From: a virus
DNA length: 43,168 bases
IMG/VR virus record: IMGVR_UViG_3300018875_000009
Coordinates: 1 to 43,168 of that record
Direction: 5' to 3' (one strand)
Below, in pieces: positions 463 to 41,871 of the stretch. Both the position numbers and the translations under genes were made by a program. Numbering within the stretch: position 1 is the first letter of the stretch; each line of letters begins with the position of its first letter. The notes beneath the pieces are model-generated. The model worked only from the letters and a program-made list of their open reading frames with translations. It had not been told where the DNA came from and did no database searches.

Positions 463-480
463 GAAACTATCATTTGGAAT
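463..480 (+). repeat. Copy of the dispersed intergenic motif (GAAACTATCATTTGGAAT), 7 nt upstream of the primase ATG
   Basis: Same 17-mer core as the copy upstream of the capsid gene (28005-28022, minus strand). Confidence 0.8.
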
Positions 481-487
481 ACAGCGG

Positions 488-877
488 ATGGATAAGCCGC
501 CGATTGCGGAAGTGCTAGAGCACTACGGAGCCACCGACGTTCCGGAAGGGTCGCGCTTCCGAAAGATGAAGTGCCCGTTCCACGAAGACCGAAATGCCTC
601 GGCTTCCGTCTGCACCGAAGAGAACCGCTTTCGGTGCTTCGCGTGCGATATCTCGGGCGACAGCTTCGACGTAATCGCAGACCAGGAAGGATGCCGTGAC
701 TTCGCTTGTACCCGATCCTGCGCTGAAAAGCTTCTTGGAGGAAGCTACGGCCAGGTACGAGGGGGATCTGACGAGAAGCCCCGCCGCCGTGGAGTATTTG
801 AAGACTCGCGGCCTGTCCGTGGACAACGCAGCCTCATTTCGGCTGGGGTACGTCGAAAGCCCCTTGCCGGGTCATGA
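488..877 (+). CDS. DNA primase, N-terminal CHC2 zinc-binding part (ORF 1 of a split primase)
   Basis: CPFHEDRNASASV...FRCFACDISGDSFDV zinc-finger signature. GC3 bias fades after about 700, although the frame stays open to 877. Confidence 0.65.
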   Translation: MDKPPIAEVLEHYGATDVPEGSRFRKMKCPFHEDRNASASVCTEENRFRCFACDISGDSFDVIADQEGCRDFACTRSCAEKLLGGSYGQVRGGSDEKPRRRGVFEDSRPVRGQRSLISAGVRRKPLAGS

Positions 878-1343
878 GGTTATGCGGGGGATGCTGGCTG
901 TCCCCTACCTGACTAGGGCCGGGGTCATGACCATTCGGTTCCGTCGCCTCGGCGACGGGGACGGGCCGAAATACCGGTCTGTCCCCGGTGACCCCCCGCG
1001 AATCTACAACGCGGGTTCACTCCTGATCCCCTCGGATCACATCGCCATCTGTGAAGGCGAATTCGACGCGATAGCGGCCACCCTGGCCGGAATCCCGGCG
1101 GTCGGAATCGCTGGTGTGAGCGCATGGAAGTCGTACTTCGCCCGATGCTTCAAGGGCTATCGGGCCGTGTACATCCTCGCCGACCACGACGACAAGGGAC
1201 AGGGGATGGAGTTCGCCGAGAAGGTCGCCGAACAGATCAAGAACGCTCGCATATCCCCCATGCCGGCCGGACACGACGTGAATTCGTTCGTCCTGGCCAA
1301 CGGCCCCGAAGCCCTTCTAGACCAACTGGAGATCAAGCGATGA
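696..1343 (+). CDS. DNA primase, TOPRIM catalytic part (ORF 2 of a split primase)
   Basis: GTG start 5 nt after SD AGGAAGGA (683-690). Motifs ICEGEFDAIA and ILADHDDKGQG. Confidence 0.75.
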   Translation: MTSLVPDPALKSFLEEATARYEGDLTRSPAAVEYLKTRGLSVDNAASFRLGYVESPLPGHEVMRGMLAVPYLTRAGVMTIRFRRLGDGDGPKYRSVPGDPPRIYNAGSLLIPSDHIAICEGEFDAIAATLAGIPAVGIAGVSAWKSYFARCFKGYRAVYILADHDDKGQGMEFAEKVAEQIKNARISPMPAGHDVNSFVLANGPEALLDQLEIKR

Positions 1344-1588
1344 CGAGTGAGGAACTGGCCGACGAAGTAGGGCACTTCATCCGGCAGTGCCGAGGGCGAA
1401 TCCTCGGTATCGGGGCCGAACAGTACGACGAAGGCGATGGACAACAGAAGTTCGAAACCATGCCGCTGGTCGAGCTGGTCGTGTACGCCCGTGAAGAAGC
1501 CCAAGACCTGGCCGTATACGCGGCCATGCTCGATATCCGACTGAAGCGACTCGAAGACGCTCTTCGAGAGAAGGGCGTCAGCCTGTGA
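1340..1588 (+). CDS. Hypothetical protein (82 aa)
   Basis: ATGA start/stop overlap with the primase ORF. High GC3. No recognisable motif. Confidence 0.5.
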   Translation: MTSEELADEVGHFIRQCRGRILGIGAEQYDEGDGQQKFETMPLVELVVYAREEAQDLAVYAAMLDIRLKRLEDALREKGVSL

Positions 1589-2352
1589 AGCGCATTGTTG
1601 TCCTGTCCGACATGCAGATTCCCTACCACGATAAGCGGGCCGTTCAGAACGTCCTTCGGTTCATCGAGCAGTACAAGCCCGATGAAGTCGCCTCGGTCGG
1701 CGACGAAGTCGACTTCCCGCAGATCAGCCGTTGGTCGAGAGGCATGGCCGGCGAGTACAAGGGGGATCTTCAGGCGCACTGTGATGCAGGGAAGCGGGTG
1801 CTCTCTTCCCTTCGCCGCGTGCACGACGGACCGATTCACGTCAGCCGCTCCAATCACATGGACCGGCCCCTTACCTACGTCCGAACGCGCGCCCCTGGCC
1901 TCATGGGCTTGAAGGCCCTCGAAGTGCCGTCCCTTCTCGACTTCGAGAAGTACGACGTGACCTACCACGAAGAGCCGTACGAAATTGCCCCCGGTTGGCT
2001 TCTCGCCCACGGTGACGAAGGCGCATCCTCGCGGGTTCCCGGCGGAACCGCTATGGCCCTGGCCCGTAAGTGGGGTTACTCCGTGGTCTGCGGTCACACT
2101 CACAAGCTCGGAATCCAGCACGAACACCGGGTAGTGAATTCGAAGCTCACGACCGAACTGTTCGGCTTCGAAGTCGGAAACCTTATGGCCCTGAAGTCTG
2201 CCCACTACCTCAAGGCCGGTCACGCCAATTGGCAACAGGGGTTCGGAATCCTCTACGTCGAGAAGAACCGCGTTACCCCTGCCCCTGTATTCATCCGCCC
2301 GAACGGCTCTTTCGTGGTCGAAGGCAAGACTTACGGCCTGAAGGCCGCCTAG
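1585..2352 (+). CDS. Metallophosphoesterase (calcineurin-like)
   Basis: Motifs VLSDMQIPYHD, GDEVD and CGHTHK. GTGA overlap with the upstream gene. Confidence 0.8.
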   Translation: MKRIVVLSDMQIPYHDKRAVQNVLRFIEQYKPDEVASVGDEVDFPQISRWSRGMAGEYKGDLQAHCDAGKRVLSSLRRVHDGPIHVSRSNHMDRPLTYVRTRAPGLMGLKALEVPSLLDFEKYDVTYHEEPYEIAPGWLLAHGDEGASSRVPGGTAMALARKWGYSVVCGHTHKLGIQHEHRVVNSKLTTELFGFEVGNLMALKSAHYLKAGHANWQQGFGILYVEKNRVTPAPVFIRPNGSFVVEGKTYGLKAA

Positions 2353-2362
2353 GAGATCCCCC

Positions 2363-2923
2363 ATGATGCACTGGACCCGCTACCAGAAGATTGCCGATTC
2401 CGTCGCCCGGAAGGTCGCCGAGGAGTACCCCGGCATTGACGCCGAGGACATTCGCCAGGAAATCCTTCTTCACGTCATGGAGAAGAAGAACGTTTACGAG
2501 TCGACCGACTACCCGGATGGTCAGCTTCGGAAGAACTTCCGGCAGGTCGCCGTGAGCTACGCGGGCCGGGAGCGCTACGCGTACATCTACCATTCCGCGG
2601 AGTACGTTTACACGTCCTCGGAGATTCGTCAGCTCTTCGAGAAGGCGTTCTTCCAGCCTGAGCTTTGGGAGACGGCCCCGACGAAGGACGACGGGGTTTC
2701 CGTCGCCGCCGGGGGCGTTGTTGTGGCCCTTTGGGACCTTGACCGGGCTTACTCGGCTCTCCCCGTTCTCGACGCCGAGGTTATCGCGAAGCGGTATGAG
2801 CGCGGGGAGCCTCTTTCCTCGGCTGAGACCATGCGCCTTTCTCGCGCTATCGACAAGATCGTTCGGACGCTGAACAACGGCGTCATCAAGAGGCAGCAGG
2901 AACGAAAGACCGCCGCTGCCTGA
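2363..2923 (+). CDS. Sigma-70/ECF-like factor or HTH DNA-binding protein (weak call)
   Basis: AGGAG SD upstream. By eye, a region-2-like segment ([13 protein letters not shown]) and a C-terminal region-4-like HTH ([13 protein letters not shown]). Confidence 0.4.
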
Positions 2924-2942
2924 ACCACTAGAAGGAACATTC

Positions 2943-5039
2943 TTGAATATCACCCATGCCCCGAACTTTGGCCCGACCGGCGCGACCGTGTATGAGCGCA
3001 CCTATCAGCGCGTGAAGCCGAATGGCGAGCGTGAATCGTGGCTCGACACCGTGACGCGCGTTGTCGACGGGAACCTGTCCCTTGTCCCCGAGAAGTACCG
3101 CAACCCCGGTGAGCGTGAACGGCTCATTGAGTTGATGTACGACTTCAAGGTTCTTCCCGCCGGTCGGCACCTGTGGGCTTCGGGCGTGCCCGGTCGTCAG
3201 TACCTCTTCAACTGTCACGTATCCGGTTGGGGCGACAAGCTCTCGGATCACTTCGAGTTCACGTTCATGAGGCTCATGGAAGGTGGCGGAGTTGGAGCCA
3301 ACTACAGCTCCCGTTTCCTGAAGCCGTACGGCGCCCCCAGGCGGCCCCTGAACGTCCACATCGTCTGTGACCCCGCGCACCCCGACTACGCGGCTATGAA
3401 GGCCGCTGGTGTGCTCTCTGACAACTACTCGCACGAATGGGGCGGGGCCTTCCCGGTAGAGGACTCTCGGGAGGGTTGGGCCGCCGCCCTGGTCGACCTT
3501 CTCGACACCTACGGCCGGCCGGACGTGCGCCACGCTGACCGCGTGTACGACGTGAGCCGCGTACGCGAGGAAGGCGCACCGCTCCGCACCTTCGGCGGTA
3601 CGGCCTCGGGTCCTCGACCCCTGGCCCGGATGATGCTCGACGTAGCCGAGGTGATGAACCGGGCCTTCGAGCGCCAGGCCGCCTCGGCCCCGTGGGAGCA
3701 TCTGACGCCGCTCGAAGCGATGGAGATTGACCACGCTATCGCCGAGTGTGTCGTGTCCGGCGGGAACCGCCGTTCTGCGCGTATGGCCATGGTGGAATGG
3801 GATGACCCGTTCATCATGCAATTCATCCGCTGTAAGGCCGATACGGGTAAGCACTGGACGACGAATATCAGCGTCGCTATCACGGATGAGTTCATTGAAG
3901 CGCTGAACGGCACTCCCGAAGAGGGCGCCGACGGAATGCCGCAGTACGGCCCTTCTGCGCACGCTCACGCCGTTCATGAGGCCGTAGTGAAGGGCATGCT
4001 CGACAACGGCGAGCCGGGTTACTTCAACCTGTCTCTTTGCAATGTCGGCGAGCCGAACGAGATCATCGCGAGTAACCCGTGTGGCGAAATCGCGCTCGAA
4101 AGCTGGGAAAACTGCAATCTCGGTCACGTCAACTTGGACGCTTTCGCGCCGAAGAAGCCGACCGATGAACCCGACCTCGAAGGCATCCTTGAGGCTCACC
4201 GCCTCATGACGCGTTTCCTGATTCGCGCCACCTACGGTGACGTGAACGATCCGAAGCAGGCTGAGACCCTGGCCCGTAACAGGCGAATCGGTGTTGGTCA
4301 CTTCGGCGTTCAGGGATATCTCGCGAAGCAGGGAATCAGGTACTCGAAGGCCCCTAGCTTCTTCCGGTTCCCGTTCGAGCTTCGCATTATGGCCAGTGAG
4401 GTGAAGGCCGCCGCTATCGACTACGCGCACCAGTTGCGCATTCCGGTGCCGGTCAAGATGACCACGGTTGCCCCCACGGGCACCATTGCGAAGATGCCGG
4501 GGGTCACCGAGGGAATCCACCCGATCTATGCCCGCCACTTCATCCGGCGGGTTCGCTTCTCCCTGGTCGACCCCGTACAGGCGGAGCGTGTAAACGTGCT
4601 CTTCACCCAGGGGCACAACGTCGAAGAGGACGTGTACGACAAGAGCGGTAACACGGTCGTGGTCGAGTTCCCGACGAAGGAAAAGCTGGTCGAAGAAGTC
4701 GAAGCGATGGGACTGCCGGCCGAGCTGGTCGAGTCTGCGGACGAAATCAGCTTCGCCGACATGCTCGCTTTTCAGGCTATGTATCAGAAGAACTTCGCTG
4801 ACAACGCGGTGAGCTTCACCGTGAACATCCTCCCTGGCCAGGTCTCCCAGGGCGAAGCCGAGGAGACGCTGAAGCGGTTCCTTCCCGTCCTGAAGGGAAC
4901 CACCGTGTTCCCTGACCTCACCCGGCCCCAGTCGCCTTACGAGCGGATCACGGCCGAGGAGTACGAGAAGGCCACCGCGAAGAGCGTGGACGCGTCCTAT
5001 GACGAAGCGTGCGCATCGGGTGCCTGCCCGGTGAAGTAG
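2943..5039 (+). CDS. nrdJ: Class II (adenosylcobalamin-dependent) ribonucleotide reductase
   Basis: 698 aa. Motifs NPCGEIAL and TVAPTGT with a C-terminal Cys pair. TTG start after SD GAAGGAAC. Confidence 0.88.
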
Positions 5040-5046
5040 CAGCCCT

Positions 5047-5087
5047 GAAGCTGTCATTTGAAACCGCCACCCCGGCGGCCCAATACT
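5047..5087 (+). promoter_or_regulatory. Dispersed motif GAAGCTGTCATTTGAAA, with a possible promoter (-35 TTGAAA 5058-5063, 18-nt spacer, -10 AATACT 5082-5087)
   Basis: Motif starts 8 nt after the nrdJ stop. Hexamer spacing read directly. The -10 is only moderate. Confidence 0.45.
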
Positions 5088-5112
5088 AGGAACACGAAAG
5101 AGGAGAGGGGCC

Positions 5113-5868
5113 GTGAAAAGGCCCGGTCCCTCTCCGCTCCAATCCCGGAAGGAACCCCCTTTGAAGGTCACTGTCGTTGCGGACACTATGACCCGTGACT
5201 TCCACATGGAGACGCTTACCGGCTTCGAGTCGGACGCTGCGAACCCTGCGGATCATCTGGCCGAGTTCGCCGGTCGAGAGTGCTACAAGAGCCACCACAA
5301 GCCGAATCCGAAGACCGCGACGAATGCGGCCTACCTGGCGAACATTCTCGACCACGGGCATACGTCGGTCCTCGAACACGCCACGGTGACCTTCTACGTT
5401 CAGCACGTATCCCGCGCGCTTCTTCTCGAACTGGAAAGGCACCGGTTCCTTTCCTTCTCCGTGGAATCTCAGAGGTACGTCGACATGGAGAAGGCCCACC
5501 CCGACCCGGTTGTTCCTCCGCTCTTCCGAGAGATCGAGGACGAAGACACCCGGCGGGATCTCAACAACCTTCTTTACGACCACTACGACGCGAGCCTTAG
5601 TCAGTACGCCTACGTATTCAACCGGCTTCGCGACGAAGACGTTCCGCTGAAGAAGGCCCGCGAAGCGGCCCGCGCTTTCCTGCCGAACTGTACGCCCGTT
5701 GACTTCGTGGTCACCGGGAACATTCGGGCCTGGCGTGACGTGCTGGGCAAGCGTTACCACCTGGCCGCCGACGCCGAGATTCGAGAGTTCGCGTCGCTCA
5801 TCCTCGCCGAGCTTCGCGACATAGCCCCCAACGCCGTTCAGGACATCCCGGAGACTCCCTATGCGTAA
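5113..5868 (+). CDS. thyX: Flavin-dependent thymidylate synthase ThyX
   Basis: RHRFLSFSVESQRY matches the ThyX motif RHRxxSxxxxSxR. GTG 5113 follows SD AGGAGAGGGG. An alternative in-frame TTG lies at 5161. Confidence 0.88.
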   Translation: MKRPGPSPLQSRKEPPLKVTVVADTMTRDFHMETLTGFESDAANPADHLAEFAGRECYKSHHKPNPKTATNAAYLANILDHGHTSVLEHATVTFYVQHVSRALLLELERHRFLSFSVESQRYVDMEKAHPDPVVPPLFREIEDEDTRRDLNNLLYDHYDASLSQYAYVFNRLRDEDVPLKKAREAARAFLPNCTPVDFVVTGNIRAWRDVLGKRYHLAADAEIREFASLILAELRDIAPNAVQDIPETPYA

Positions 5869-6638: not shown

Positions 6639-7059
6639 CCCGCGGCCTACCTGGGACGAGTATTTCCTAGGGATCGCCCAGGCCGTGAGCACACGCGGAG
6701 ACTGCACCCGCGCGCAGGTTGGGGCGGTCATGGTTCAGGTGTTGGCCGGCCTCCCCACAGGGGTTGGCTTCGGGTACAACGGCCCCCCGCCGGGGGTGCC
6801 CGGTTGTCTCTCTGCTGGGGCGTGCCCTCGGGGCCGTCTGACCGCCGAAGAGTGCCCGCCGAATAGCGACTACTCGAACTGTACGGCCGATCATGCCGAG
6901 CGGAACGCGGTCCGTCTGACCCCTACCGAGCACCGCCAGGGCGCGACTCTCTACGTGACGCGCGAGCCGTGCCCGAGCTGCCGCACGCTGATCACGGCGG
7001 CCCAGATTGGCCGTGTCGTGTGGCCCGATGGTGAATGGCTTCCGCCACCCGGCCACTGA
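6631..7059 (+). CDS. Deoxycytidylate (dCMP) deaminase
   Basis: Zinc-binding motifs HAERNA and PCPSC. N-terminal WDEYFLGIA. Confidence 0.85.
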   Translation: MGDPRPTWDEYFLGIAQAVSTRGDCTRAQVGAVMVQVLAGLPTGVGFGYNGPPPGVPGCLSAGACPRGRLTAEECPPNSDYSNCTADHAERNAVRLTPTEHRQGATLYVTREPCPSCRTLITAAQIGRVVWPDGEWLPPPGH

Positions 7060-7084
7060 TACTCTCGACCCTGCACCTTCCCCT

Positions 7085-7097
7085 TCTCTCGCTGACA
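7085..7097 (-). repeat. Orphan inverted copy of the early-leader motif TGTCAGCGAGAGA, followed by SD-like GAAGGGGAAGG (7075-7085)
   Basis: The reverse complement of 7075-7097 reads GTGTCAGCGAGAGAAGGGGAAGG. No credible downstream minus-strand ORF. Confidence 0.6.
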
Positions 7098-7114
7098 CGG
7101 TGAAGGTTGGTGCG

Positions 7115-7146
7115 ACGGCCCCCGCTTCGGCGGGGGCCGTTTTCGT
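7115..7146 (+). terminator. Intrinsic terminator after the nucleotide-metabolism operon
   Basis: 11-bp GC stem (ACGGCCCCCGC / GCGGGGGCCGT), TTCG loop, then TTTTCG. Confidence 0.8.
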
Positions 7147-7176
7147 ATGCCCTGATCCTAGCATTTGATCCGGCCC

Positions 7177-7232
7177 GTTTAAACGGTTGACACACGTTCC
7201 AAATGACAGTAACGTTCTTCCTGTCAGCGAGA
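7177..7232 (+). promoter_or_regulatory. Early promoter cassette A: GTTTAAAC 7177-7184, -35 TTGACA 7187-7192, 17-nt spacer containing CCAAATGACAG, -10 TAACGT 7210-7215, leader TGTCAGCGAGA 7222-7232
   Basis: Hexamers and spacing read directly. The same architecture recurs about 10 times. Confidence 0.7.
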
Positions 7233-7274
7233 CGGACGCCGGAACGGCCGGCTTCCGGAGAGAAGGGGAAGAAC

Positions 7275-7931
7275 ATGCGAGAGATCACCCGCGAAGAGTG
7301 GCTTCACCTGGCTATCGAAGCCCTGCGCCCGGAGTTCGAGAAGATCGAGTTCCCGCTTCCCGAGAAGATTCATGTCAGCGTGGGCTTCGGCTACGGCGCT
7401 AAGCGCGAGTCGGCGAAGATCCTCGGCCAGTGCTGGGCGCGTCGGGTTTCCGAGGACGGCGTGAACCACATCTTCATCAGCCCCGAGCTTTCCGACGAAG
7501 CCCGCGTTCTCGACGTGCTGATTCATGAGCTGGTGCATGCGGCTGACGACTGCATGAGCGGCCACAAGGGGGCCTTCGCGAAGGCCGCTAAGGCTCTCGG
7601 CCTCACCGGGAAGATGACCGCCACGGTGGCCACCCCGGAACTGACCGAAAAGCTCCGGGAGTTGGCTAAGGCCCTCGGCCCCTACGCTCACGCCACCCTG
7701 TACCCCATGGGCAAGCCGATTCAGCCGAGGGAAGAGCCGAAGCCGGAAGACCCGGAGACCCCGGAAGAGCCCCCGGTTTCGTCCGGCCCGAAGAAGCAGG
7801 GAACCCGCATGATCAAGGTTGCCTGCAAGCCGGATTGCGGGTGCGGCGGGTACGTGGTCCGCACTACCGCGAAGTGGCTCGAAGTCGGAATGCCGATCTG
7901 CCCCATGGGAACGGTCATGGAACTTGCCTGA
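7275..7931 (+). CDS. SprT-like zinc metalloprotease
   Basis: HELVH (HExxH) in an SprT-like context (ILGQCW...IHELVHAADD...GHKGAFAK), with a C-terminal Cys cluster. SD GAAGGGGAAG lies upstream of ATG 7275. Confidence 0.65.
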   Translation: MREITREEWLHLAIEALRPEFEKIEFPLPEKIHVSVGFGYGAKRESAKILGQCWARRVSEDGVNHIFISPELSDEARVLDVLIHELVHAADDCMSGHKGAFAKAAKALGLTGKMTATVATPELTEKLRELAKALGPYAHATLYPMGKPIQPREEPKPEDPETPEEPPVSSGPKKQGTRMIKVACKPDCGCGGYVVRTTAKWLEVGMPICPMGTVMELA

Positions 7932-7943
7932 CAGCCCCTCACG

Positions 7944-7974
7944 CGGCCCCCTTCGGGGGGCCGTTCGTGTTTCC
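7944..7974 (+). terminator. Intrinsic terminator
   Basis: CGGCCCCC / GGGGGCCG stem, TTCG loop, T-rich tail. Confidence 0.75.
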
Positions 7975-7985
7975 GGGCCTGATCC

Positions 7986-8042
7986 AAGCTGTCATTTGAC
8001 ATGTCGTGTTTAAACGCTGTAACTTCTTCCCTGTCAGCGAGA
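7986..8042 (+). promoter_or_regulatory. Early promoter cassette B: AAGCTGTCATTTGACA, -35 TTGACA 7996-8001, 18-nt spacer with GTTTAAAC 8008-8015, -10 TAACTT 8020-8025, leader TGTCAGCGAGA 8032-8042
   Basis: Read directly. Confidence 0.7.
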
Positions 8043-8065
8043 CACAAACCCGAAGGGGAAGACCA

Positions 8066-8506
8066 GTGCAGACCATGAAGATTTCCGAGACGGCCAACGT
8101 CGCCGACTCGAAGGGCGTGTTCCTGTTCGGCGGGAAGGCCGCCGGTCGGAAGGGGCCGAAGAAGGATCTGGTGCCGGTCAAGGTCGAGCTTCACGCTCGG
8201 GGTGTGGCGAAGCTCGTCAACGCCGAGGACGGTTCCGAGGTTCTTCACTCCCGCGTAGGCACGGTCGTCTTCGCCGGTCCCGTGAACGGCAAGCCGGCCG
8301 AGGCCGAGGGCAAGCCGAAGCGGCCCCGAAAGAAGGCCGTGAAGGCCCCTGAGAAGGCCGAGAAGGCGAAGGTCGAGGAGAAGCCCCAGGCCCCCGCTAA
8401 GCGGCCCGGAAAGGCCCCCGCGAACTTCGTAGACCTGGCCCGGTCGGCGAACACTGAAGCGGCCCGCCGCTACTGGCAGAGGGTTGTAGACCAGTACGAA
8501 GGCTGA
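8066..8506 (+). CDS. Hypothetical protein with a Lys/Pro/Ala-rich basic C-terminal half
   Basis: GTG 6 nt after SD GAAGGGGA (ATG 8075 is the alternative). KPKRPRKKAVKAPEKAEKAK tail. Confidence 0.55.
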   Translation: MQTMKISETANVADSKGVFLFGGKAAGRKGPKKDLVPVKVELHARGVAKLVNAEDGSEVLHSRVGTVVFAGPVNGKPAEAEGKPKRPRKKAVKAPEKAEKAKVEEKPQAPAKRPGKAPANFVDLARSANTEAARRYWQRVVDQYEG

Positions 8507-8517
8507 CCGCTCCAAAC

Positions 8518-8550
8518 GGCCCCCGCTTCGGCGGGGGCCTTCTTCGTCTC
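8518..8550 (+). terminator. Intrinsic terminator
   Basis: GGCCCCCGC / GCGGGGGCC stem, TTCG loop, TTCTTCGTCTC tail. Confidence 0.75.
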
Positions 8551-8551
8551 G

Positions 8552-8609
8552 GAAGCTGTGATTTGGAATCTGCGTTTAAACGTGCTACGTTTCTCCTGTC
8601 AGCGAGAGA
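8552..8609 (+). promoter_or_regulatory. Early promoter cassette C: GAAGCTGTGATTTGGAA, -35 TTGGAA 8563-8568, 17-nt spacer with GTTTAAAC 8574-8581, -10 TACGTT 8586-8591, leader TGTCAGCGAGAGA 8597-8609
   Basis: Read directly. Confidence 0.7.
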
Positions 8610-8649
8610 CACCGGGAAAGGCCCGGTGCACAACCTGAAGGGGAAGACA

Positions 8650-8841
8650 ATGAACGTTTCCGGCGAGTGGGTCATCCTCGGTCACGGCCGTTCCGAGAAG
8701 GACGTTTACATGGGTCCGGGTACCTACTCGGAGATTGCCGAAGTCGTTCAGCTGTGGAACGACACTCACACCGAGCGTGAGCAGCGCGGGGAGGCCCCGC
8801 GCGGTTCTCTCCAGCGCTTCTACATGAAGCGCGTGGGCTAA
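8650..8841 (+). CDS. Hypothetical protein (63 aa)
   Basis: ATG after SD GAAGGGGAAG. Flanked by its own promoter cassette and terminator. Confidence 0.5.
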   Translation: MNVSGEWVILGHGRSEKDVYMGPGTYSEIAEVVQLWNDTHTEREQRGEAPRGSLQRFYMKRVG

Positions 8842-8854
8842 CCGCTCACCCCAA

Positions 8855-8886
8855 CCCCCCGCTTCGGCGGGGGGTTTCCTGTTTCT
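8855..8886 (+). terminator. Intrinsic terminator
   Basis: CCCCCCGC / GCGGGGGG stem, TTCG loop, TTTCCTGTTTCT tail. Confidence 0.8.
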
Positions 8887-8897
8887 CGACTCAGACC

Positions 8898-8955
8898 GTT
8901 TACACGCTTGCGCTCGATTCCAAATGACAGTATCGTTTCCCTTGTCAGCGAGAGA
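8898..8955 (+). promoter_or_regulatory. Early promoter cassette D: GTTTACAC 8898-8905, -35 TTGCGC 8908-8913, 17-nt spacer containing CCAAATGACAG 8920-8930, -10 TATCGT 8931-8936, leader TGTCAGCGAGAGA 8943-8955
   Basis: Read directly. Confidence 0.65.
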
Positions 8956-8994
8956 AGGGGGGCCGGAAGGCCCGGCCCCCGGAAGGGAAACGCA

Positions 8995-9102
8995 ATGCAC
9001 TTCGGAGACCCGCGCTTCAAGCTCGTCTGTAAGTGGCACAAGGACTGCGACGGAAACGTTCGCCAGGCCCACCGGTTCGAGTGGGTGAAGGTCGAGAAGT
9101 AG
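8995..9102 (+). CDS. Hypothetical mini-protein (35 aa, Cys/His-containing)
   Basis: ATG after SD GGAAGGGAAA and a leader hairpin. Has its own promoter and terminator. Very short, so uncertain. Confidence 0.35.
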   Translation: MHFGDPRFKLVCKWHKDCDGNVRQAHRFEWVKVEK

Positions 9103-9108
9103 CCCCGA

Positions 9109-9139
9109 GGGCGGCCCGAAAGGGCCGCCCTTCTTCTTT
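9109..9139 (+). terminator. Intrinsic terminator
   Basis: GGGCGGCCC / GGGCCGCCC stem, GAAA loop, TTCTTCTTT tail. Confidence 0.8.
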
Positions 9140-9144
9140 GCCCC

Positions 9145-9200
9145 GAAGCTAAACTTGAAATGGTATCGCTTCAGATGCTAGATTCCCAATGTCAGCGAGA
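9145..9200 (+). promoter_or_regulatory. Early promoter cassette E: GAAGCTAAACTTGAAA, -35 TTGAAA 9155-9160, 18-nt spacer, -10 TAGATT 9179-9184, leader TGTCAGCGAGA 9190-9200
   Basis: Read directly. Confidence 0.65.
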
Positions 9201-9228
9201 AACGGCCTTCGGGCCGGAAGGGAATCCT

Positions 9229-10352: not shown

Positions 10353-10372
10353 GCGGCGACCAGCTCGACTAC

Positions 10373-10400: not shown

Positions 10401-10430
10401 ATGCCCAACAAGCCCTAGGAAGCCCTGTAC

Positions 10431-32748: not shown

Positions 32749-32804
32749 GTTCCCTCCGTCAGGTGATCAGCCCGAGTTTCAGGAACAGGGGAGCTACCCC
32801 ACTG

Positions 32805-32877
32805 TGGGAACGGAGGGAATCGAACCCCCGACGCACCGGATTTCACCCGGTAGCTCTTCCGACTGAGCTACGTTCCC
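32805..32877 (-). tRNA. tRNA-Phe(GAA)
   Basis: Hand-folded cloverleaf: acceptor GGGAACG/CGUUCCC, D arm GCUC-AGUCGGAA-GAGC, anticodon arm ACCGG-GUGAAAU-CCGGU, T arm GGGGG-UUCGAUU-CCCUC. No encoded CCA. Confidence 0.8.
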
Positions 32878-34145: not shown

Positions 34146-34477
34146 GGGGCCACCCCCTCTCTAGGGGGGTACCCCCTTGGTCTTCATTCTGTATAGACCT
34201 GTTAAGGGCCAGGGCTTCTAATGCCCTGGCCTTAGATAGCTTCCTTATAGGGGCGGCCTCGGGAGGGCCGCCCTTCTGCTACTGCTCTCTTCCGTTCGCA
34301 GTAGCTCTAGAGCTATCTCTGTCCCCCGATCCCCCCGGCTTCCGTTCGCTCGCTCCGCTCTCTCACTACAGCCGACCCCCTTACCCCCTAGCTGTCGCCA
34401 GGGGTAGACCTGTTGGTTCGGCAGAGGCCCCACAACGGGGCCTCTAACCTGGGGTTCCTTGATCCCGCCAGGGCAGC

Positions 34478-34551
34478 GAAGCTATGTTTTGGAATGCCAG
34501 CGAGGAACGGCCCAGGAGGGGCCGGGAGCTAGCAGAGAAGCCCGTTTAAAC
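34478..34551 (+). promoter_or_regulatory. Dispersed motif GAAGCTATGTTTTGGAAT (34478-34495) fused to leader-like GCCAGCGAGGAA, then a hairpin and GTTTAAAC (34544-34551)
   Basis: Read directly. First element of the + arm. Confidence 0.55.
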
Positions 34552-34571: not shown

Positions 34572-34781
34572 GTGTTCCTGCCCCCGAAGACTGTTGCTGC
34601 CACGAACCGCTATGTCGAGAACGGCCCCGAGGACCGGAACCCGGTCTTCAAGCACGACTTCCGGGGGCGCGTCGACTTCTCTGGCGGAATTCTTCGCTAC
34701 AGCACGACCACCCCGGCCCCGGCTAAGAAGAAGGGCAATGCCGCTTCGGTCATGGCCCGTATTGCTCAGGCCCGAAGCTGA
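34572..34781 (+). CDS. Hypothetical protein (69 aa)
   Basis: GTG after SD AGGAAAGAGG. High GC3. Its TGA stop lies inside the next motif copy. Confidence 0.55.
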   Translation: MFLPPKTVAATNRYVENGPEDRNPVFKHDFRGRVDFSGGILRYSTTTPAPAKKKGNAASVMARIAQARS

Positions 34782-34791
34782 TATTTGGAAT
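34774..34791 (+). repeat. Copy of the dispersed motif (GAAGCTGATATTTGGAAT)
   Basis: Read directly. Confidence 0.75.
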
Positions 34792-37061: not shown

Positions 37062-37331
37062 TCACGGCTGCTGTTGCTCGGGGTTCCAATCTTCGATTGC
37101 CACAACCGCGTGCTTGCTGGCGGGGGCCTTCCGCGGCTTCGGGGCCTTCCGGTCGGTCCCCAGGTCATACAGCTCGACCAGGGGCGCCTTATGCTCGCCG
37201 CACAGGTCCACGTCCTTCGGCTTGCCCCCTCGGCTGACCGTGAAGCCCTCGACCTCTTCGTCACTGCCGCACACGTCGCACCGAGCTAGCTCGATCAGTT
37301 CTCTAACCACGGCCCGCCCTCCTCTCGTCAA
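37062..37331 (-). CDS. Small protein resembling a Cys-substituted Lsr2 N-terminal domain, with a basic PKPRKAP tail
   Basis: By eye, CDVCGSDEEVEGFTVSRGGKPKDVDLCGEHKAPLVELY aligns with Lsr2 DDLDGSEATQTVLFALDGKTYEIDLNDGHAAELRDAL. Lies downstream of int. Confidence 0.45.
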   Translation of the reverse strand: MTRGGRAVVRELIELARCDVCGSDEEVEGFTVSRGGKPKDVDLCGEHKAPLVELYDLGTDRKAPKPRKAPASKHAVVAIEDWNPEQQQP

Positions 37332-38418
37332 GCGGGATGATCTTACCGCCGTCCTGTCCAGCGGTCAGGAACGGCTGTCCCTTCATCATCTGCGCGTACT
37401 TCTGCCGCTCGATATCCAATCCTAGGTACCGCTCGGTCGTGCTCACCTCCTTGTGGTTCAGGGCCGCCTGCACGATCCGAAGGGCGTAGTCATGGCCCTT
37501 GTGGACCAGGGAGTCATAGAGGATGCGCGCGAAGGAACGGCGAAGCGTGTGCCACGCGTCCCCAGGGTCAAGCTCGATGCCGGCCTTCTCGGCAACGTCC
37601 TTGATGATGTAGGTCGGGTGAGTGATCCACCCCTCGGGGTTGAGTCGGCGAACCGGGTCCGGTACCTGGGCGTGACCGGCTATGAACTTGCGCTTGTGGC
37701 ACACCGGGAACAGGTAGTAGGACCGCTTCAGCGTCCCGACCTCTTCCGTGTAGATGCGAAGCCACTCCCGAAGCTCCCGCTCAAGGTCGAGCGACAGGGG
37801 AACCGTTACCTCTTCCTTCGTCTTCGGCAGGTACACGTACAGCTCCCCCTTGTTGAAGGACACGTCTCGCACCCGCATCTGAACCGCCTCGGAGATGCGA
37901 AGGCCCGTGTTCGCCAGGAAGGCGATCAAGGCACGGTCGCGGGGGTAGTCCGCCGCTTCGATCAAGAGAAGCACTTCTTCCCGCGTCATGCGGTAGCGGT
38001 TCCGGTTGGTCTGGGTGCTCTTCTCCTTCAGGCCCTCGGTCAGTTGCTCCATGGTCCGGAGCGTCCATTCACGGCGCTCACAGAAGCGGAAGAAGCTACG
38101 CATGGTGGCCCGATAGTTGGCCAGGGTGGTGGACCCGCACGTCTCATGAAGGCCGCCAGGGCCGTAGAAGAAGGCTTCGATGTGCTGCGCCCGGAGGGTG
38201 CTTACGTGACAGTCGCCGACATGCACGGCGAACCGTCGAAAGAGGCTCCGAAGGTAGTGCAACGGCCGGCCGTGCCCTACTTGGGCTTCCCGTTGCTCGA
38301 CGTACAGCTTCCCCGCGTAGCTTACTTTTGGAGTTGCAGCCCTAGCCATTCCGAATGTGCCCTTCGTCCGTTCAGTCGACCGCCGTACGGCAGCGCTGAC
38401 CAGCGGCTTCCCAGGCAT
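37303..38418 (-). CDS. int: Tyrosine integrase
   Basis: C-terminal catalytic region: ...GLRISEA..., WHTLRRSFA, ...ALNHKEVSTTERYLG (R..HxxR..Y). Confidence 0.9.
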   Translation of the reverse strand: MPGKPLVSAAVRRSTERTKGTFGMARAATPKVSYAGKLYVEQREAQVGHGRPLHYLRSLFRRFAVHVGDCHVSTLRAQHIEAFFYGPGGLHETCGSTTLANYRATMRSFFRFCERREWTLRTMEQLTEGLKEKSTQTNRNRYRMTREEVLLLIEAADYPRDRALIAFLANTGLRISEAVQMRVRDVSFNKGELYVYLPKTKEEVTVPLSLDLERELREWLRIYTEEVGTLKRSYYLFPVCHKRKFIAGHAQVPDPVRRLNPEGWITHPTYIIKDVAEKAGIELDPGDAWHTLRRSFARILYDSLVHKGHDYALRIVQAALNHKEVSTTERYLGLDIERQKYAQMMKGQPFLTAGQDGGKIIPLDERRAGRG

Positions 38419-38668
38419 ACTAACATTTGGAACCTAGCTTCCAGGACAACTAGGAAATGCGCTCTGACCTGCGGAAACGTACGGCTTAAGCCCCCAAGGT
38501 AGGGGCCTCGGAGGGGGCCGTCAAGGGCCGTTCGAACGAGCGATTCGAACAAATATCCGTCACAGCAAAGTTAAGAAACTGTGTTTCTTTTCTAGACCGT
38601 ACAACCCTTCATGCTCTACGTGCGTATACTTCATTTGGAGCTAGACGCGTGGTCCGCGTCGAGCTTCG

Positions 38669-38743: not shown

Positions 38744-39229
38744 ATGCCGGCCCCCAGACTGCTGCCAACCAGCGACGTGCTTCGTAAGCATCGCTCGGAG
38801 GGGATGACCTACGAGGAGATCGGGAAGATGTACGGCGTTTCAAAGGGGGCCGTGTATCAGGCCCTTCGCAACGCCAACCAGACGAAGACGCGCCCCGATC
38901 ACAGCAAGTACATTCCGTGGACCGTCCGGACCGAACATGCCCAGGCTCGACCTAACGGCATGCTTCGGCTTTACTCGCGTCGCGAGCAGGGCGAGACGCT
39001 ACCTGCGGTCAAGGAACGCATGCTCGACAAGTGGCTGGCCGAGCTGAAGGAAGCCAACGTGGTGGTCTGTTATCACCGCGACATGGCCCCGAATCCCGCC
39101 AGCCCTACCGGCGGGTGGTACTACTCGAAGCGTCGACCTTCGGACGGCGACAGCCTGATTCGCTTCGAGCCCGAGAAGAAGCCGGGCGAAGAAGTCGCGA
39201 AGGTCTCGGACCCCTCGGGCGCTGCCTAG
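38744..39229 (+). CDS. Helix-turn-helix DNA-binding protein (candidate Cro, excision or immunity factor)
   Basis: GMTYEEIGKMYGVSKGAVYQALRNA is an HTH. ATG 38744 follows GAAGGG (the ORF-track TTG is at 38714). Confidence 0.6.
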   Translation: MPAPRLLPTSDVLRKHRSEGMTYEEIGKMYGVSKGAVYQALRNANQTKTRPDHSKYIPWTVRTEHAQARPNGMLRLYSRREQGETLPAVKERMLDKWLAELKEANVVVCYHRDMAPNPASPTGGWYYSKRRPSDGDSLIRFEPEKKPGEEVAKVSDPSGAA

Positions 39230-39263
39230 CTTCGTTTAAACAATCTACGCGCGTGCACCGACG

Positions 39264-39289
39264 GGCCGCCCCTAGCGGGCGGCCTTTTT
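39264..39289 (+). terminator. Intrinsic terminator
   Basis: GGCCGCCC / GGGCGGCC stem, 5-nt loop, TTTTT run. Confidence 0.85.
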
Positions 39290-39296
39290 GCTGCCT

Positions 39297-39354
39297 GAAG
39301 CTGTTATTTGACACCGCCAGGGGCGTCGAGCGAAGATATACCTGTCAGCGAGGG
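39297..39354 (+). promoter_or_regulatory. Cassette K upstream of whiB: GAAGCTGTTATTTGACA, -35 TTGACA 39308-39313, weak -10 GAAGAT 39332-39337, leader TGTCAGCGAGGG 39343-39354
   Basis: Read directly. The -10 matches only at A2 and T6. Confidence 0.5.
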
Positions 39355-39438
39355 AAGGCCACGGAGGAACCGGCAAGGAAAGCCGGGGACGTGAGCAAAA
39401 CCGAGCGGCCAGAATACCCCCGGCATAAGTGAGGCATC

Positions 39439-39771
39439 TTGCACCCCTGCGAGGCTGACCCGGATCTTTGGTTTTCGGAAAAGGCCGAGGATATAGCCCA
39501 GGCGAAGGAAGCCTGCGGCTTCTGCCCGGTTCGCGCTGAGTGTGCCGAGTTGGGCGAAGAGGAAGAGTTCGGCGTTTGGGGCGGTATGACCTCGGACGAG
39601 ATTCGCAGCGCGAAACGCTTCCGTCTCGTCATGCTCGAAGAGTGGACGAATTCTAAGATTCGATCCATGCAGGCTAGCGGCGTCTCGATCTCGGCCATGG
39701 CCCGTGAGCTGGGCATGCCCCGCAAGACGTTGGCGGACCGGCTTCGCCGAATGACCGGCCTTGCTGCGTAG
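39439..39771 (+). CDS. whiB: WhiB-family Fe-S transcription factor with a C-terminal HTH extension
   Basis: Cys at HPCE plus CGFCPVRAEC (C-x2-C-x5-C) and GVWGG. C-terminus SISAMARELGMPRKTLADRLRR. TTG start after SD AAGTGAGG. Confidence 0.82.
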   Translation: MHPCEADPDLWFSEKAEDIAQAKEACGFCPVRAECAELGEEEEFGVWGGMTSDEIRSAKRFRLVMLEEWTNSKIRSMQASGVSISAMARELGMPRKTLADRLRRMTGLAA

Positions 39772-39949
39772 TAAGGCAACCCTTAGCTACTAACAGGTTC
39801 TGAACATCTGGTCACAAAGCCGTAACAACGATGTTTGAACCTCAACAAAGTGTTCACGGAGTGAACGTTTCCGGTTACGCTTTGATCCTAACCTCGCAGC
39901 TCAAAAGGCTTCCGGGGTTGCTCTGTGTGCGGAAGTAACGGCCTCGGGG

Positions 39950-40246
39950 ATGCCCATGCTCGTAGAAAGCTCTCAAGGAGTGGACCTCAATAATGCAGGG
40001 GTCGACCTTCAGGGCATAGACATTCTGTGGGACATACCTCAAGTGATCTCTGTCGCGAGACTGAGATACGCGAACGGAACGCGGATCGAATTCGCGTACT
40101 GCCGACAGAATGCTGATGAAGACGATTTCGAAGTAGCCCGCAATATGGCTCCAACCCCCTCGGTACCGCTGAAGAGCTACCCGAGCGACACCCTCGGTTG
40201 CGGCCATGACGACGAATACACGACCGCCTGTTGGGTGTTCCACTAA
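39950..40246 (+). CDS. Hypothetical acidic protein in a low-GC island (coding strand ambiguous)
   Basis: GC3 is only about 64 percent by hand count, against about 85 percent in neighbouring genes. A + strand terminator follows. A competing minus ORF at 39875-40267 has the same GC3. Confidence 0.3.
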   Translation: MPMLVESSQGVDLNNAGVDLQGIDILWDIPQVISVARLRYANGTRIEFAYCRQNADEDDFEVARNMAPTPSVPLKSYPSDTLGCGHDDEYTTACWVFH

Positions 40247-40276
40247 CCCCATCGGCCACAACTTCACATAGACCTA

Positions 40277-40308
40277 GGGGCACCCCCCGAGGGTGCCCCT
40301 TCTGTTTG
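40277..40308 (+). terminator. Intrinsic terminator
   Basis: GGGGCACCC / GGGTGCCCC stem, 5-nt loop, TTCTGTTTG tail. Confidence 0.75.
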
Positions 40309-40312
40309 CCCT

Positions 40313-40330
40313 GAACCTGTTATTTGGAAA
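40313..40330 (+). repeat. Copy of the dispersed motif (GAACCTGTTATTTGGAAA)
   Basis: Read directly; 13 nt upstream of ATG 40344. Confidence 0.75.
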
Positions 40331-40343
40331 GAGAGAGAACGCC

Positions 40344-40592
40344 ATGACCGCCTTCCGTTCCGAGGACACTCGCACCCTGAACTTCACCGACGTTGACGGC
40401 CGCCCGGTCAGCGTGCGCCCCATCTATGACTCTGGCCTCGGCCGGAACGTCATCGAGCTGGTCGTTCACGGCGCGACCGTGCGCCTGTCCAACGGCATAG
40501 TTCCCAAGTTCGTGGACGGCGTGACCACGGCGGCCTTCCTCGGGGAGCTGGACAACGTGACCACGGGCAACCCGACCCCCGCCGGGGCGTGA
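40344..40592 (+). CDS. Hypothetical protein (82 aa)
   Basis: ATG after the GAGAGAGAAC purine tract, in frame with ORF 40293-40592. Confidence 0.55.
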   Translation: MTAFRSEDTRTLNFTDVDGRPVSVRPIYDSGLGRNVIELVVHGATVRLSNGIVPKFVDGVTTAAFLGELDNVTTGNPTPAGA

Positions 40593-41422
40593 CCGTGGGC
40601 GAACCGATAGCTCACCGGTCCGTATCGCAGTATTCGAGCTTCGTACGGTGCGGAGAGGCTTACCGGCTTGAGAAGGTCGCCAGGGCTCCCCAGGCTCAGG
40701 CCGCGTGGTTCATCCAAGGGACCGCCTACCACGAAGCCGTAGAGAAGTGGGAGCGCTCGAACCGGGCCTTCGGCCCCGACCGCATGGCCGAGTGGTTCGA
40801 AGAAGCCTGGGAACGGGAGATGGCCGCCGCCCTGGCCGTCGAGCCGGACGTGTCCCGGTGGCTCACCGGCGGAGTCACGAAGCCTGAGACCGACATCAAG
40901 AACCGCCGGAAACGTGGCCGTGATCAGGTAGAAGCGTACTTCGAGTACGCGATAGAAGCCCCTGAACGCATCTGGGAGCCGATAGAGGGACAGCCGGCCA
41001 TCGAGCTTCCGTTCACGCTGAATCTCGACGGAATCGAGGTCCGCGGGTTCATTGATCAGGTGATCGAGTATCCGGACGGACACCTTCGAGTAAGGGACCT
41101 GAAGACCGGAACCAAGCTCCCTGACACGGCTTTTCAGCTAGCCATCTACGACCACGCCCTGAACGACATGTTCGGCGTGAAACCCGGATTCGGGGATTTC
41201 TTCATGGCGAAGAACAACGCCCCGACCGACCCTTGGAATCTTCAGGATTACACCTTGGAGAAGGTGACCCGGTGGTTCCGCAACATGGATAAGGCCGTAC
41301 GTCTCGGCCTGTTCCTTCCCAACCCTGGCGACGCGTGCCGTACCTGTACGGTCCGGCGATTCTGCGACTTCAACGGAGTCGACGCCCGCCAATACCCCTA
41401 CGAAGAGAGTGTGAATGTCTGA
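40589..41422 (+). CDS. Cas4-family / RecB-like PD-(D/E)XK exonuclease with a 4-Cys cluster
   Basis: N-terminal Cys (FVRCGE), GFIDQV...VRDLKTG nuclease core, C-terminal CRTCTVRRFC. Confidence 0.78.
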   Translation: MTVGEPIAHRSVSQYSSFVRCGEAYRLEKVARAPQAQAAWFIQGTAYHEAVEKWERSNRAFGPDRMAEWFEEAWEREMAAALAVEPDVSRWLTGGVTKPETDIKNRRKRGRDQVEAYFEYAIEAPERIWEPIEGQPAIELPFTLNLDGIEVRGFIDQVIEYPDGHLRVRDLKTGTKLPDTAFQLAIYDHALNDMFGVKPGFGDFFMAKNNAPTDPWNLQDYTLEKVTRWFRNMDKAVRLGLFLPNPGDACRTCTVRRFCDFNGVDARQYPYEESVNV

Positions 41423-41849
41423 GACCGCCGAGAAGTTCACCGTGACCATGAAGAGCCACGGCGGCCATGACGCGACGTGGGTTGTCGTCAAGGCCGATTC
41501 CCAGGCCGAGCTTGTCGACCTCCTGAGCGGCTTCTCTCAGTCTGGCGTGTCCGCCCTGATCGGGGAGGCCGTGACCGCCCTTCGGGCCGAAGAGATCCTT
41601 GGGGCTCAGCTCGGGGCGCGTCCGGTCGAGCACCCCGGCAACTACGACCGAGGCGGCCAGAACGGCGCTCAGGCGCCCTCTCAGGCCCCCGCCGGCCAGA
41701 CCCCCTACGGCACTCCCCCGACGTGCCCGCACGGCACGAAGCGGTTCCTGGAGAAGCCCTACAAGAACAAGCCCGGCACCTGGAAGGCGTGGGCTTGCCC
41801 GGCCCCCCAGGGCACCCCGGACGCGTGCTCTCTGGAGTTCATCCGGTAG
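41415..41849 (+). CDS. Hypothetical protein (144 aa) with a Gly/Pro/Gln-rich linker and a C-terminal Cys/His cluster
   Basis: Overlaps the upstream stop. High GC3. Confidence 0.55.
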   Translation: MSETAEKFTVTMKSHGGHDATWVVVKADSQAELVDLLSGFSQSGVSALIGEAVTALRAEEILGAQLGARPVEHPGNYDRGGQNGAQAPSQAPAGQTPYGTPPTCPHGTKRFLEKPYKNKPGTWKAWACPAPQGTPDACSLEFIR

Positions 41850-41853
41850 GCCC

Positions 41854-41871
41854 GAAGCTGTCATTTGAAAA
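41854..41871 (+). repeat. Copy of the dispersed motif (GAAGCTGTCATTTGAAAA). GTTTAAAC follows at 41929-41936.
   Basis: Read directly. Confidence 0.8.

Follow-up and report, generated by a model that had tools for sequence, protein, structure and literature searches.

What is the function of a short sequence that recurs about twenty times in a phage genome, between the genes and mostly pointing the way these are transcribed? The question arises from the IMG/VR virus record IMGVR_UViG_3300018875_000009, which we analysed over its whole length of 43,168 bp (the window). An original prediction, made from the DNA letters alone, had described about 19 copies of the repeat, an asymmetric 18-mer (YGAAGCTGTCATTTGRAA, here motif A), and had likened it to the stoperators of cluster A mycobacteriophages (L5 gp71) or to the start-associated sequences (SAS) of cluster K phages. 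Our sequence comparisons suggest, with a probability of about 0.7, that motif A is the operator/stoperator set of the phage's own gp71-type immunity repressor, encoded at 38744-39229. Systems of this kind are already known, including in Streptomyces phages; the setting here is an undescribed phage lineage.

A dispersed and oriented intergenic motif

Searching the window for YGAAGCTGTCATTTGRAA at ≤3 mismatches returned 16 matches versus 0.09 expected, and 100 dinucleotide shuffles gave 1 match at most. An iterated position weight matrix (PWM) found 21 matches (mean 0.92, maximum 5 in 100 Markov shuffles), and with the centre masked the PWM found 20 sites. Together with about four degenerate copies, the 20-21 PWM sites make a total of about 20-25; the coordinates given in the original prediction were right to within one base. 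Dyad symmetry is absent from the consensus (TGAAGCTGTCATTTGGAA), that is, motif A is not palindromic. It consists of two conserved blocks, GAAnCT and ATTTGGAA, about 10 bp or roughly one helical turn apart, around a variable centre. The sites are given here with strand and surroundings; B (palindrome CGTTTAAACG) and C (putative leader TGTCAGCGAGA) are two further motifs treated below, and all promoter elements are predictions.

462-479, +: direct; between RusA-like stop (447) and primase Zn-ribbon ATG (488), which are 40 nt apart; centre TATCAT 18 nt after TTGATT, hence over a predicted -10
5046-5063, +: direct; 6 nt after the stop of the ribonucleotide reductase (RNR) gene, before ThyX
7154-7170, +: degenerate A-like copy (GATCCTAGCATTTGATC), direct; homologous copy in the relative L242 at 8462
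7197-7214, -: inverted; fills the predicted promoter spacer TTGACA-17-TAACGT; GTTTAAAC upstream (7177-7184), leader C downstream (7222-7232)
7984-8001, +: direct; its 3' TTGACA is a predicted -35, 18 nt to TAACTT; after terminator 7943-7964; B 8008-8015; C 8032-8042
8551-8568, +: direct; as predicted -35, TTGGAA-17-TACGTT; after terminator 8518-8539; B 8574-8581; C 8597-8607
8918-8935, -: inverted; in predicted promoter spacer TTGCGC-17-TATCGT; after terminator 8853-8876; C 8943-8953
9145-9160, +: weak copy
10554-10571, +: degenerate, direct; followed by GTGTAAAC; paired with the inverted site 10621-10638
10621-10638, -: inverted; in predicted promoter spacer TTGCGC-18-TAACGT; heads a non-coding stretch of ~600 nt
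11178-11195, -: inverted; in predicted promoter spacer TAGACA-17-TATGGT; C 11203-11213
11839-11856, +: direct; as predicted -35, TTGAAA-17-TACCGT; B 11861-11868; C 11886-11896
12160-12177, +: direct; as predicted -35, TTGACA-18-TAGAGT; after terminator 12125-12148; B 12184-12191; C 12208-12218
13714-13726, +: weak copy
24084-24101, -: direct, late arm; follows the tail tube stop (24121) and precedes the next ATG (24069)
28006-28023, -: direct, late arm; within the 29-nt gap that precedes the major capsid ATG (28000)
34477-34494, +: direct, first of the early arm; centre TATGTT 18 nt after TTGATC, hence over a predicted -10; candidate early-promoter operator
34773-34790, +: direct; overlaps the stop of 34572-34781, just before the next gene
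38316-38333, +: direct; weaker copy accompanying 38415
38415-38432, +: direct; in the integrase-repressor gap
38625-38640, +: degenerate copy upstream of the repressor gene
39296-39313, +: direct, ends in TTGACA; just after the repressor-gene terminator 39263-39285; C-like leader 39343-39353, before a WhiB-like gene
40312-40329, +: direct; just after terminator 40276-40300, 14 nt before ATG 40344
41853-41870, +: direct; 3 nt after stop 41849

Our gene map was built with a codon-usage model; it leaves 15% of the window intergenic and missed the primase Zn-ribbon open reading frame (ORF) at 488-877. Judged by this map, every site lies outside predicted coding sequence, as had been claimed, apart from two trivial exceptions: 34773 overlaps the final 9 nt of a gene, and 40312 falls within a mis-called GTG start upstream of ATG 40344. 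By our arithmetic, the probability that at least 18 of 20 random sites are intergenic is ~0.15^18. Sixteen of 20 sites are co-oriented with transcription, and these are found on both arms: 14 on the + arm (462, 5046, 7984, 8551, 10554, 11839, 12160, 34477, 34773, 38316, 38415, 39296, 40312 and 41853) and two on the - (late) arm (24084 and 28006). The remaining four (7197, 8918, 10621 and 11178) are inverted and share one common register in a predicted promoter spacer, each abutting the predicted -10. The original prediction was therefore correct both on the direction of the direct copies, the late-arm pair included, and on the four spacer copies. A fifth inverted PWM match, at 9183, overlaps another motif and was left out of the count. 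The weak copies at 7154, 9145, 13714 and 38625 are plausible members of the set, being intergenic and co-oriented.

The distance from motif A to the next start codon ranges from about 5 to ~100 nt (6 to ~100 nt in the original prediction), and in five copies it is just 0-14 nt. The copy at 28006 contributes, with its 3' end, a GGAG 5 nt before the capsid ATG, which bears out the claim that some copies provide a Shine-Dalgarno sequence (SD). These observations bear on the idea that motif A acts at the RNA level, as a start-associated, translational or processing signal comparable to the SAS. In cluster K, the SAS reportedly keeps a constant, short spacing to the start codon and contains the ribosome-binding site. 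Motif A resembles SAS and extended SAS (ESAS) in being a repeated, co-oriented intergenic motif near gene starts; it lies in 5' regions, and its GGAG stands at SD distance from the start codon at 28006 and also in the relative L249. It differs from them in its variable start distance, in its four inverted copies, in having a matching repressor and in that few copies supply an SD. In addition, the -35-type copies are located upstream of the predicted transcript start, and an Rfam search of the window returned two tRNAs only, with no match for motif A or for the stretch 10353-11237. We thus regard an RNA-level signal as highly improbable, and the likeness to cluster K was not supported.

The candidate repressor belongs to the gp71 family

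The protein proposed to bind motif A and the gene beside it are located as follows.

38744-39229, +: candidate immunity repressor, 161 aa, with an N-terminal helix-turn-helix (HTH) and an L5-type 'Stoperator' domain
37303-38418, -: tyrosine integrase (Pfam Phage_integrase, E 6e-24), divergent from the repressor gene

By sequence and fold, the product of 38744-39229, one of the two HTH proteins named in the original prediction, is a member of the L5 gp71/TipsytheTRex repressor family. Its HTH matches Pfam Sigma70_r4 (E 7.6e-7), and the protein matches PHROG 357/3929, annotated as 'transcriptional repressor'. A tblastn search recovered annotated immunity repressors in 750 phage records (581 Mycobacterium, 143 Streptomyces, 24 Gordonia) at 28-33% identity and 80-94% coverage. 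Among all PDB sequences the sole match was 7R6R/7TZ1 (E 9.4e-8, residues 2-142), the immunity repressor of the cluster A2 phage TipsytheTRex, and the alignment spans both the HTH and the 'Stoperator' domain. An AlphaFold2 model (pLDDT 80.5) likewise matched 7R6R_A alone, with template modelling (TM) scores of 0.72/0.70 over 142 columns; the next TM score was 0.21. The conserved structural residues P58/W59, H65, L74/R75 and W97 correspond to L5 P70/W71, H77, L86/R87 and W112, and the recognition helix differs from that of L5. A profile of the repressor retrieved 1,698 cluster representatives at E <= 0.001; at E <= 1e-10 there were still 554 distinct clusters (50% identity). The family is therefore far larger than the characterised clusters, and many more such systems are probably unrecognised.

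Repressors of the gp71 family bind as monomers to asymmetric sites of 13-14 bp, which number 20-30 per genome and lie in promoters and short intergenic gaps in one orientation; a reversed stoperator no longer blocks elongation (PMC9283540, PMC6550527). In TipsytheTRex, the sites vary most in the middle (PMC9283540). The two domains of this family, HTH and 'Stoperator', are placed in successive major grooves, and the paired blocks of motif A with their variable centre are what such a two-domain monomer would read. As a positive control we searched L5, where 21 sites were found at ≤2 mismatches, 20 of the 21 in one orientation relative to the nearest gene and one just after the major tail gene.

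Motif A changes with the repressor among relatives

Looking for the motif in related genomes had been proposed with the original prediction. The relatives that we compared are IMG/VR contigs of ~42-43 kb and Streptomyces prophages, with a few from Micromonospora and Catellatospora; their site maps cover partial loci. One of them, L255, is a prophage in Streptomyces sp. ALI-76-A (GCA_030287445.1). In the relatives, A sites occupy the corresponding gene gaps and likewise lie on the gene strand. Site 462 has a syntenic counterpart in L252, L255 and L249, site 5046 in L252 (13290) and L249 (10516), and site 34477 is identical or near-identical in L240 (5760) and L246 (6037). In the ALI-76-A prophage we counted 10 A sites per 10 kb of prophage DNA versus 0 in 10 kb of adjoining host DNA. 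Scans of viral and genome contigs with exact motif A 14-mers gave random single matches, and a PWM rescan of these contained no true relative.

Among the relatives, each lineage has its own 4-nt centre between conserved flanks (GAAnCT and ATTTGGAA). Repressor identity to the window and site type are:

window: 100%, centre GTCA
L240-242: 72-80%, mixed centres
L246: 73%, centre AGCA
L243-245: 68-70%, centre AGTA
L249: 58%, motif GAAACTAGCATTGAAY
L250: 48%, motif ATACTAAGGTGTGYAA

The motifs of L249 and L250 were obtained from a repeated-word search in intergenic DNA, independent of the window PWM. For L249 and L243, the identities to the window are nearly the same for DnaB (93 versus 94%), exonuclease (85 versus 86%) and WhiB (66 versus 64%) but not for the repressor (58 versus 70%), and only L249 has a changed 3' half-site. 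The divergence of the sigma-like protein does not follow the motif change either. In this small sample, motif A thus varies in step with the repressor, and not with DnaB, exonuclease, WhiB or the sigma-like protein. With so few genomes, covariation did not assign the HTH or the 'Stoperator' domain to a half-site. Over L240-L252, repressor (48-80% identity to the window) and WhiB (49-78%) diverge much faster than DnaB (87-96%) and exonuclease (76-90%), a pattern that would be expected of immunity determinants under diversifying selection.

Three registers on predicted promoters

Eleven A sites overlap elements of promoters predicted from the sequence, and they do so in three registers. In the first, the 3' end of the motif forms the -35 (7984, 8551, 11839, 12160 and 39296); for 4-5 of the direct copies a TAnnnT box follows 17-18 nt downstream, as had been proposed. 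In the second, the inverted copies occupy the spacer. In the third, the motif covers the -10 in the arrangement TTGATY-18-TATCAT/TATGTT (462 and 34477); the original prediction had missed that these two direct copies lie over a -10 and not a -35. The remaining copies are located in tight gaps within operons and have no partner hexamer. Use in three registers is common among operators and would not be possible if motif A were a fixed promoter element.

Nevertheless, motif A could itself be a promoter element, a -35 with upstream extension or a -10 with flanks, read by host RNA polymerase and possibly helped by one of two phage proteins:

39439-39771: WhiB-HTH protein
2363-2923: sigma-like protein

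The 4-5 direct copies ending in TTGACA, TTGGAA or TTGAAA with TAnnnT at the proper distance and a conserved leader fit this idea, as do the many copies that follow terminators, precede genes and point with transcription. The relatives add to it: TAGTAT, TAGCAT or TAAGGT occurs in nearly every site of L243-246, L252, L249 and L250. In the window, however, only 4 of 20 sites have a TAnnnT centre, the prevailing TGTCAT is without the A that is essential at position 2, and no more than 4-5 of the 16 direct sites have a -10 at -35 spacing. The copies 0-14 nt from a start codon and the one that serves as SD at 28006 leave no room for a promoter with motif A as its -35, and the inverted copies lie inside the spacers of other promoters. 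Furthermore, the centre shifts in concert within each genome, which recognition by the host polymerase does not need, and neither sigma-like protein nor WhiB diverges in step with the motif. On balance, we consider a promoter element unlikely.

Cassettes with motifs B and C

Between 7000 and 12700 on the + strand, motif A is part of a repeated unit that the original prediction had overlooked. The elements concerned are:

7000-12700, +: about nine single-gene cassettes, A-B-C repeated units
2605, 4587, 7176, 8573, 8897, 11860, 12183, 15094, 15773, 17259, 19620, 19737, 26335, 26404, 32661: 10-mers CGTKTAMACG (palindrome CGTTTAAACG and half-variants)
7222, 8032, 8597, 8943, 9190, 11203, 11475, 11886, 12208, 39343 (+) and 7087, 13668 (-): motif C (TGTCAGCGAGA)
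13769-15100, +: 443-aa HTH-TPR-like regulator (PHROG 10886, E 4e-72)

Each cassette runs from a terminator (GC hairpin and T tract, borne out by terminator analysis) through A, the palindrome CGTTTAAACG (motif B), a TAnnnT -10, TGTCAGCGAGA (motif C), a small hairpin and an SD to a small gene. The B variant GTTTAAAC occurs 9 times versus 0.17 expected, and CGTKTAMACG 15 times versus 0.16 expected in the window, with 7 of the 15 copies inside genes, on both arms. In relatives there are 5-7 copies of CGTKTAMACG, including the relative whose repressor is 48% identical. An orientation bias of CGTTTACACG (8/11 in the window) was dropped, since relatives gave 3/6 and 3/7. Motif C (13 occurrences versus 1.0 expected) starts 5-6 nt after each predicted -10 and is followed by a small, variable hairpin. 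It would form the first 11 nt of about ten predicted transcripts; it might serve as a leader, as a second operator or as a nut-like element. The same cassette architecture was found in L242 and L255: the A centre is lineage-specific there, and B and C are unchanged.

The presence of further motifs and regulators raises the question of whether another phage protein, the 443-aa regulator or the WhiB-HTH protein, binds motif A and the gp71-like repressor acts on C or B instead. Our link between repressor and motif A is an indirect one, the genome encodes several regulators, and motif C contains TGTCA and is co-oriented with transcription. Nonetheless, C is limited to predicted transcript starts in one region and B is palindromic, and neither is dispersed, asymmetric and present on both arms like the known sites of the gp71 repressor family. 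Moreover, B and C remain constant among relatives with differing repressors and differing A sites, and WhiB identity is the same for L243 and L249 yet their motifs differ. A TPR-type regulator normally binds a symmetric site as an oligomer, which counts against the 443-aa protein. We judge such a swap of binding partners improbable and less economical than a gp71-type repressor on motif A.

A related idea keeps the repressor on A and adds a second layer. Two genome-wide DNA-binding systems might be superimposed, with A read by a monomeric, immunity-specific repressor and B by a dimeric factor that is conserved, and, as a separate element, the 'Stoperator' domain and not the HTH might face the polymerase. 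This proposal, which we hold to be doubtful, rests on A always being paired on its own strand with the lineage-invariant palindrome CGTTTAAACG. The binder of B might be the 443-aa regulator, a phage Lsr2-like protein or a host protein. If true, an encounter with the 'Stoperator' domain first would contradict the present 'HTH-first' model of the elongation block.

The cassette region can also be compared with phiC31. The early region of that phage reportedly contains many promoter-terminator units with conserved inverted repeats (CIRs) that are bound by the c repressor. The window has several features in common with it: both are Streptomyces phages of ~41-43 kb and ~62-63% GC with related capsids, and both have an early region of many small promoter-terminator units with repeated operator-like elements. 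The CIRs are palindromic and are bound by a presumably unrelated repressor, whereas motif A is asymmetric and only motif B (CGTTTAAACG) is palindromic.

Proposed mode of action and points against it

Returning to the gp71-type repressor as the protein that reads motif A, we infer its binding to the sites, the mechanism for each site class and the assignment of domains to half-sites. In a lysogen, the repressor would occupy the ~20-25 sites. Those that overlap promoters in the -35, spacer or -10 register would block initiation at about a dozen predicted early promoters. The sites in promoter-less gaps (5046, 24084, 28006, 34773, 40312 and 41853) would stop read-through transcription as polar roadblocks, a function demonstrated for L5. 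Through sites upstream of its own gene the repressor could regulate itself, and the copies 38316, 38415 and 38625 around the integrase-repressor gap are candidates for such autoregulation.

Several points weigh against this interpretation. Motif A binding and the elongation block by the repressor are themselves deduced. The site measures 17-18 bp, the TCAAG common to all cluster A sites is missing from it, and a heptamer shared with L5 has the opposite polarity there. Four to five sites are inverted, whereas L5 stoperators work one way only. In most relatives the centre is a -10-like TAnnnT, so that a promoter role there has to be taken seriously. The covariation rests on about six lineages, and the identical GTCA centres in the cassette region could stem from cassette duplication and not from selection. 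Finally, promoters and transcription starts are predictions.

Relation to known repressor-stoperator systems

The repressor-stoperator system has also been described in Gordonia A15 (PMC5559632), Rhodococcus cluster CA (PMC13313380) and R4-like Streptomyces phages (PMC10276819). Compared with cluster A (L5 gp71, Bxb1 gp69, TipsytheTRex; Gordonia A15), the window has a repressor that is homologous over both DNA-binding domains, together with ~20-25 asymmetric sites that are spread over short intergenic gaps of both arms and mostly face one way with respect to transcription. Part of the sites overlap predicted promoters, others precede the repressor gene, and among relatives the site sequence changes along with the repressor. 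With L5 in particular, the window shares a site after the major tail gene and the gene order of the early arm. There are also differences. The window site has 17-18 bp instead of 13-14, an unrelated consensus without the TCAAG core, and several inverted copies in promoter spacers; many predicted promoters would be gated by the repressor, versus a single Pleft. Next to its repressor gene are attP and the divergent gene of a tyrosine integrase. The phage, whose host is Streptomyces, carries phiC31-like structural genes and has no LysB.

We rejected the heptamer GCTGTCA as evidence of site homology with the L5 consensus GGTGGCTGTCAAG, since the L5 reading is antisense in 20/21 sites. The published L5 reading GGTGGMTGTCAAG is the antisense strand, so that GCTGTCA has the opposite polarity in the window. 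In addition, the heptamer is not kept in the relatives, which have AGTA, AGCA or CATA at those positions. Therefore, we claim homology for the repressor and the site grammar, not for the site sequence. The resemblance to stoperators that was first proposed stands, and with a repressor homologous by sequence and fold and an L5-like gene order, the phrase 'analogy, not homology' is probably incorrect for the system as a whole; for the DNA site itself, reliable homology was not found.

Motif A does not have the conserved TGTCAAG/TCAAG end that defines clusters A and CA, which R4-like members also lack (PMC10276819). Among the R4-like (cluster BD) phages, stoperators are known from R4 (TGTGCAAGTGTNGC), Zemlya (GTGTGCAACCTTCGTA) and phiHau3 (PMC10276819 Table S3). 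These phages have the same host genus, a repressor of the same family (30-33% identity) and dispersed, intergenic sites, and our most divergent relative, L250 (ATACTAAGGTGTGYAA), shares GTGTGCAA with the Zemlya and R4 motifs. They differ in having no nucleotide similarity to the window, another consensus and genome layout, and a serine instead of a tyrosine integrase. The Rhodococcus cluster CA phage Rasputin has 25 stoperators, TGTCTATTGTCAAG (PMC13313380), that is, the same architecture with another lineage-specific consensus, which, unlike the window motif, retains the cluster A TGTCAAG core. The Samy prophage was considered as a relative and rejected as unrelated (61 kb, serine integrase). 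We found no description of the lineage, the 17-18-bp consensus, the three promoter registers or the A-B-C cassette in the searchable literature, and literature searches for the three motif strings returned unrelated primer sequences only.

If motif A is the operator set of this repressor, silencing of prophages by repressor and stoperators extends to an uncultured but widespread lineage of ~43-kb temperate Streptomyces phages and prophages, whose site is different, longer and present in promoter-less gaps as well as in three registers on predicted promoters. Nature provides, in the relatives, a graded set of repressor alleles (80% to 48% identity) together with the site variants that match them, so that the evolution of new specificity in a two-domain monomeric repressor can be tested directly. 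The 18-bp site and its repressor could also serve as a compact, orientation-dependent transcriptional insulator for Streptomyces engineering.

Genome context

The ends of the window (1-127 and 43042-43168) are an exact direct overlap of 127 bp, and the RusA-like gene spans the junction. The record is thus a circularly closed or terminally redundant assembly of ~43,041 bp, with 62% GC. The same genome was found as Logan contig SRR5855437_29124, and there was no close nucleotide relative among 50,697 phage records. The major capsid protein is phiC31-like (34% identical). Along the direction of transcription, the early arm encodes repressor, exonuclease, DnaB, resolvase, split primase, metallophosphoesterase, 'sigma-K'-like protein, RNR and ThyX. 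This order, at window positions 38744-43168 and 1-5868, is shared by the L5 right arm (L253, 44882-31607), including the split primase and the 'sigma-K'-like gene adjoining the RNR gene. With a capsid closest to phiC31 and an L5-like early arm, the genome is a clear mosaic. The primase consists of two ORFs that overlap in different frames, Zn-ribbon (488-877) and Toprim (696-1343); relatives and L5 have two adjacent primase genes.

In ALI-76-A, host genes reach up to the repressor gene, which places attP between the integrase and repressor genes. The sequence ctctgacctgcggaaacg at ~38462-38480, where the prophage sequence starts after host DNA, is likely the attP core. Upon integration, the A sites 38316 and 38415 would become detached from the repressor gene.

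Besides the WhiB-HTH protein, the window encodes two Lsr2-type proteins, a class II RNR, ThyX and two tRNAs. The Lsr2-type genes (9229-9885 and 10020-10352) each have their own predicted cassette promoter; one product is a complete Lsr2, and in the other a DUF2637 membrane domain is joined to an Lsr2 DNA-binding domain. On the - strand, tRNA-Glu(TTC) (32674-32748) and tRNA-Phe(GAA) (32804-32877) are located where the late arm begins, downstream of the gene for the small terminase. Four small Cys-rich genes (12764-13658, -) diverge from the gene of the 443-aa regulator, and C-like leaders lie on either side of this divergence (13668-13678, - and 13727-13738, +). The 885-bp stretch 10353-11237 contains no convincing ORF. 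It comprises two tandem terminators, an A/B pair and the promoter-like TTGCGC-18-TAACGT at ~10600-10640, after which ~600 nt of untranslated sequence with hairpins follow, and it may encode a non-coding RNA.

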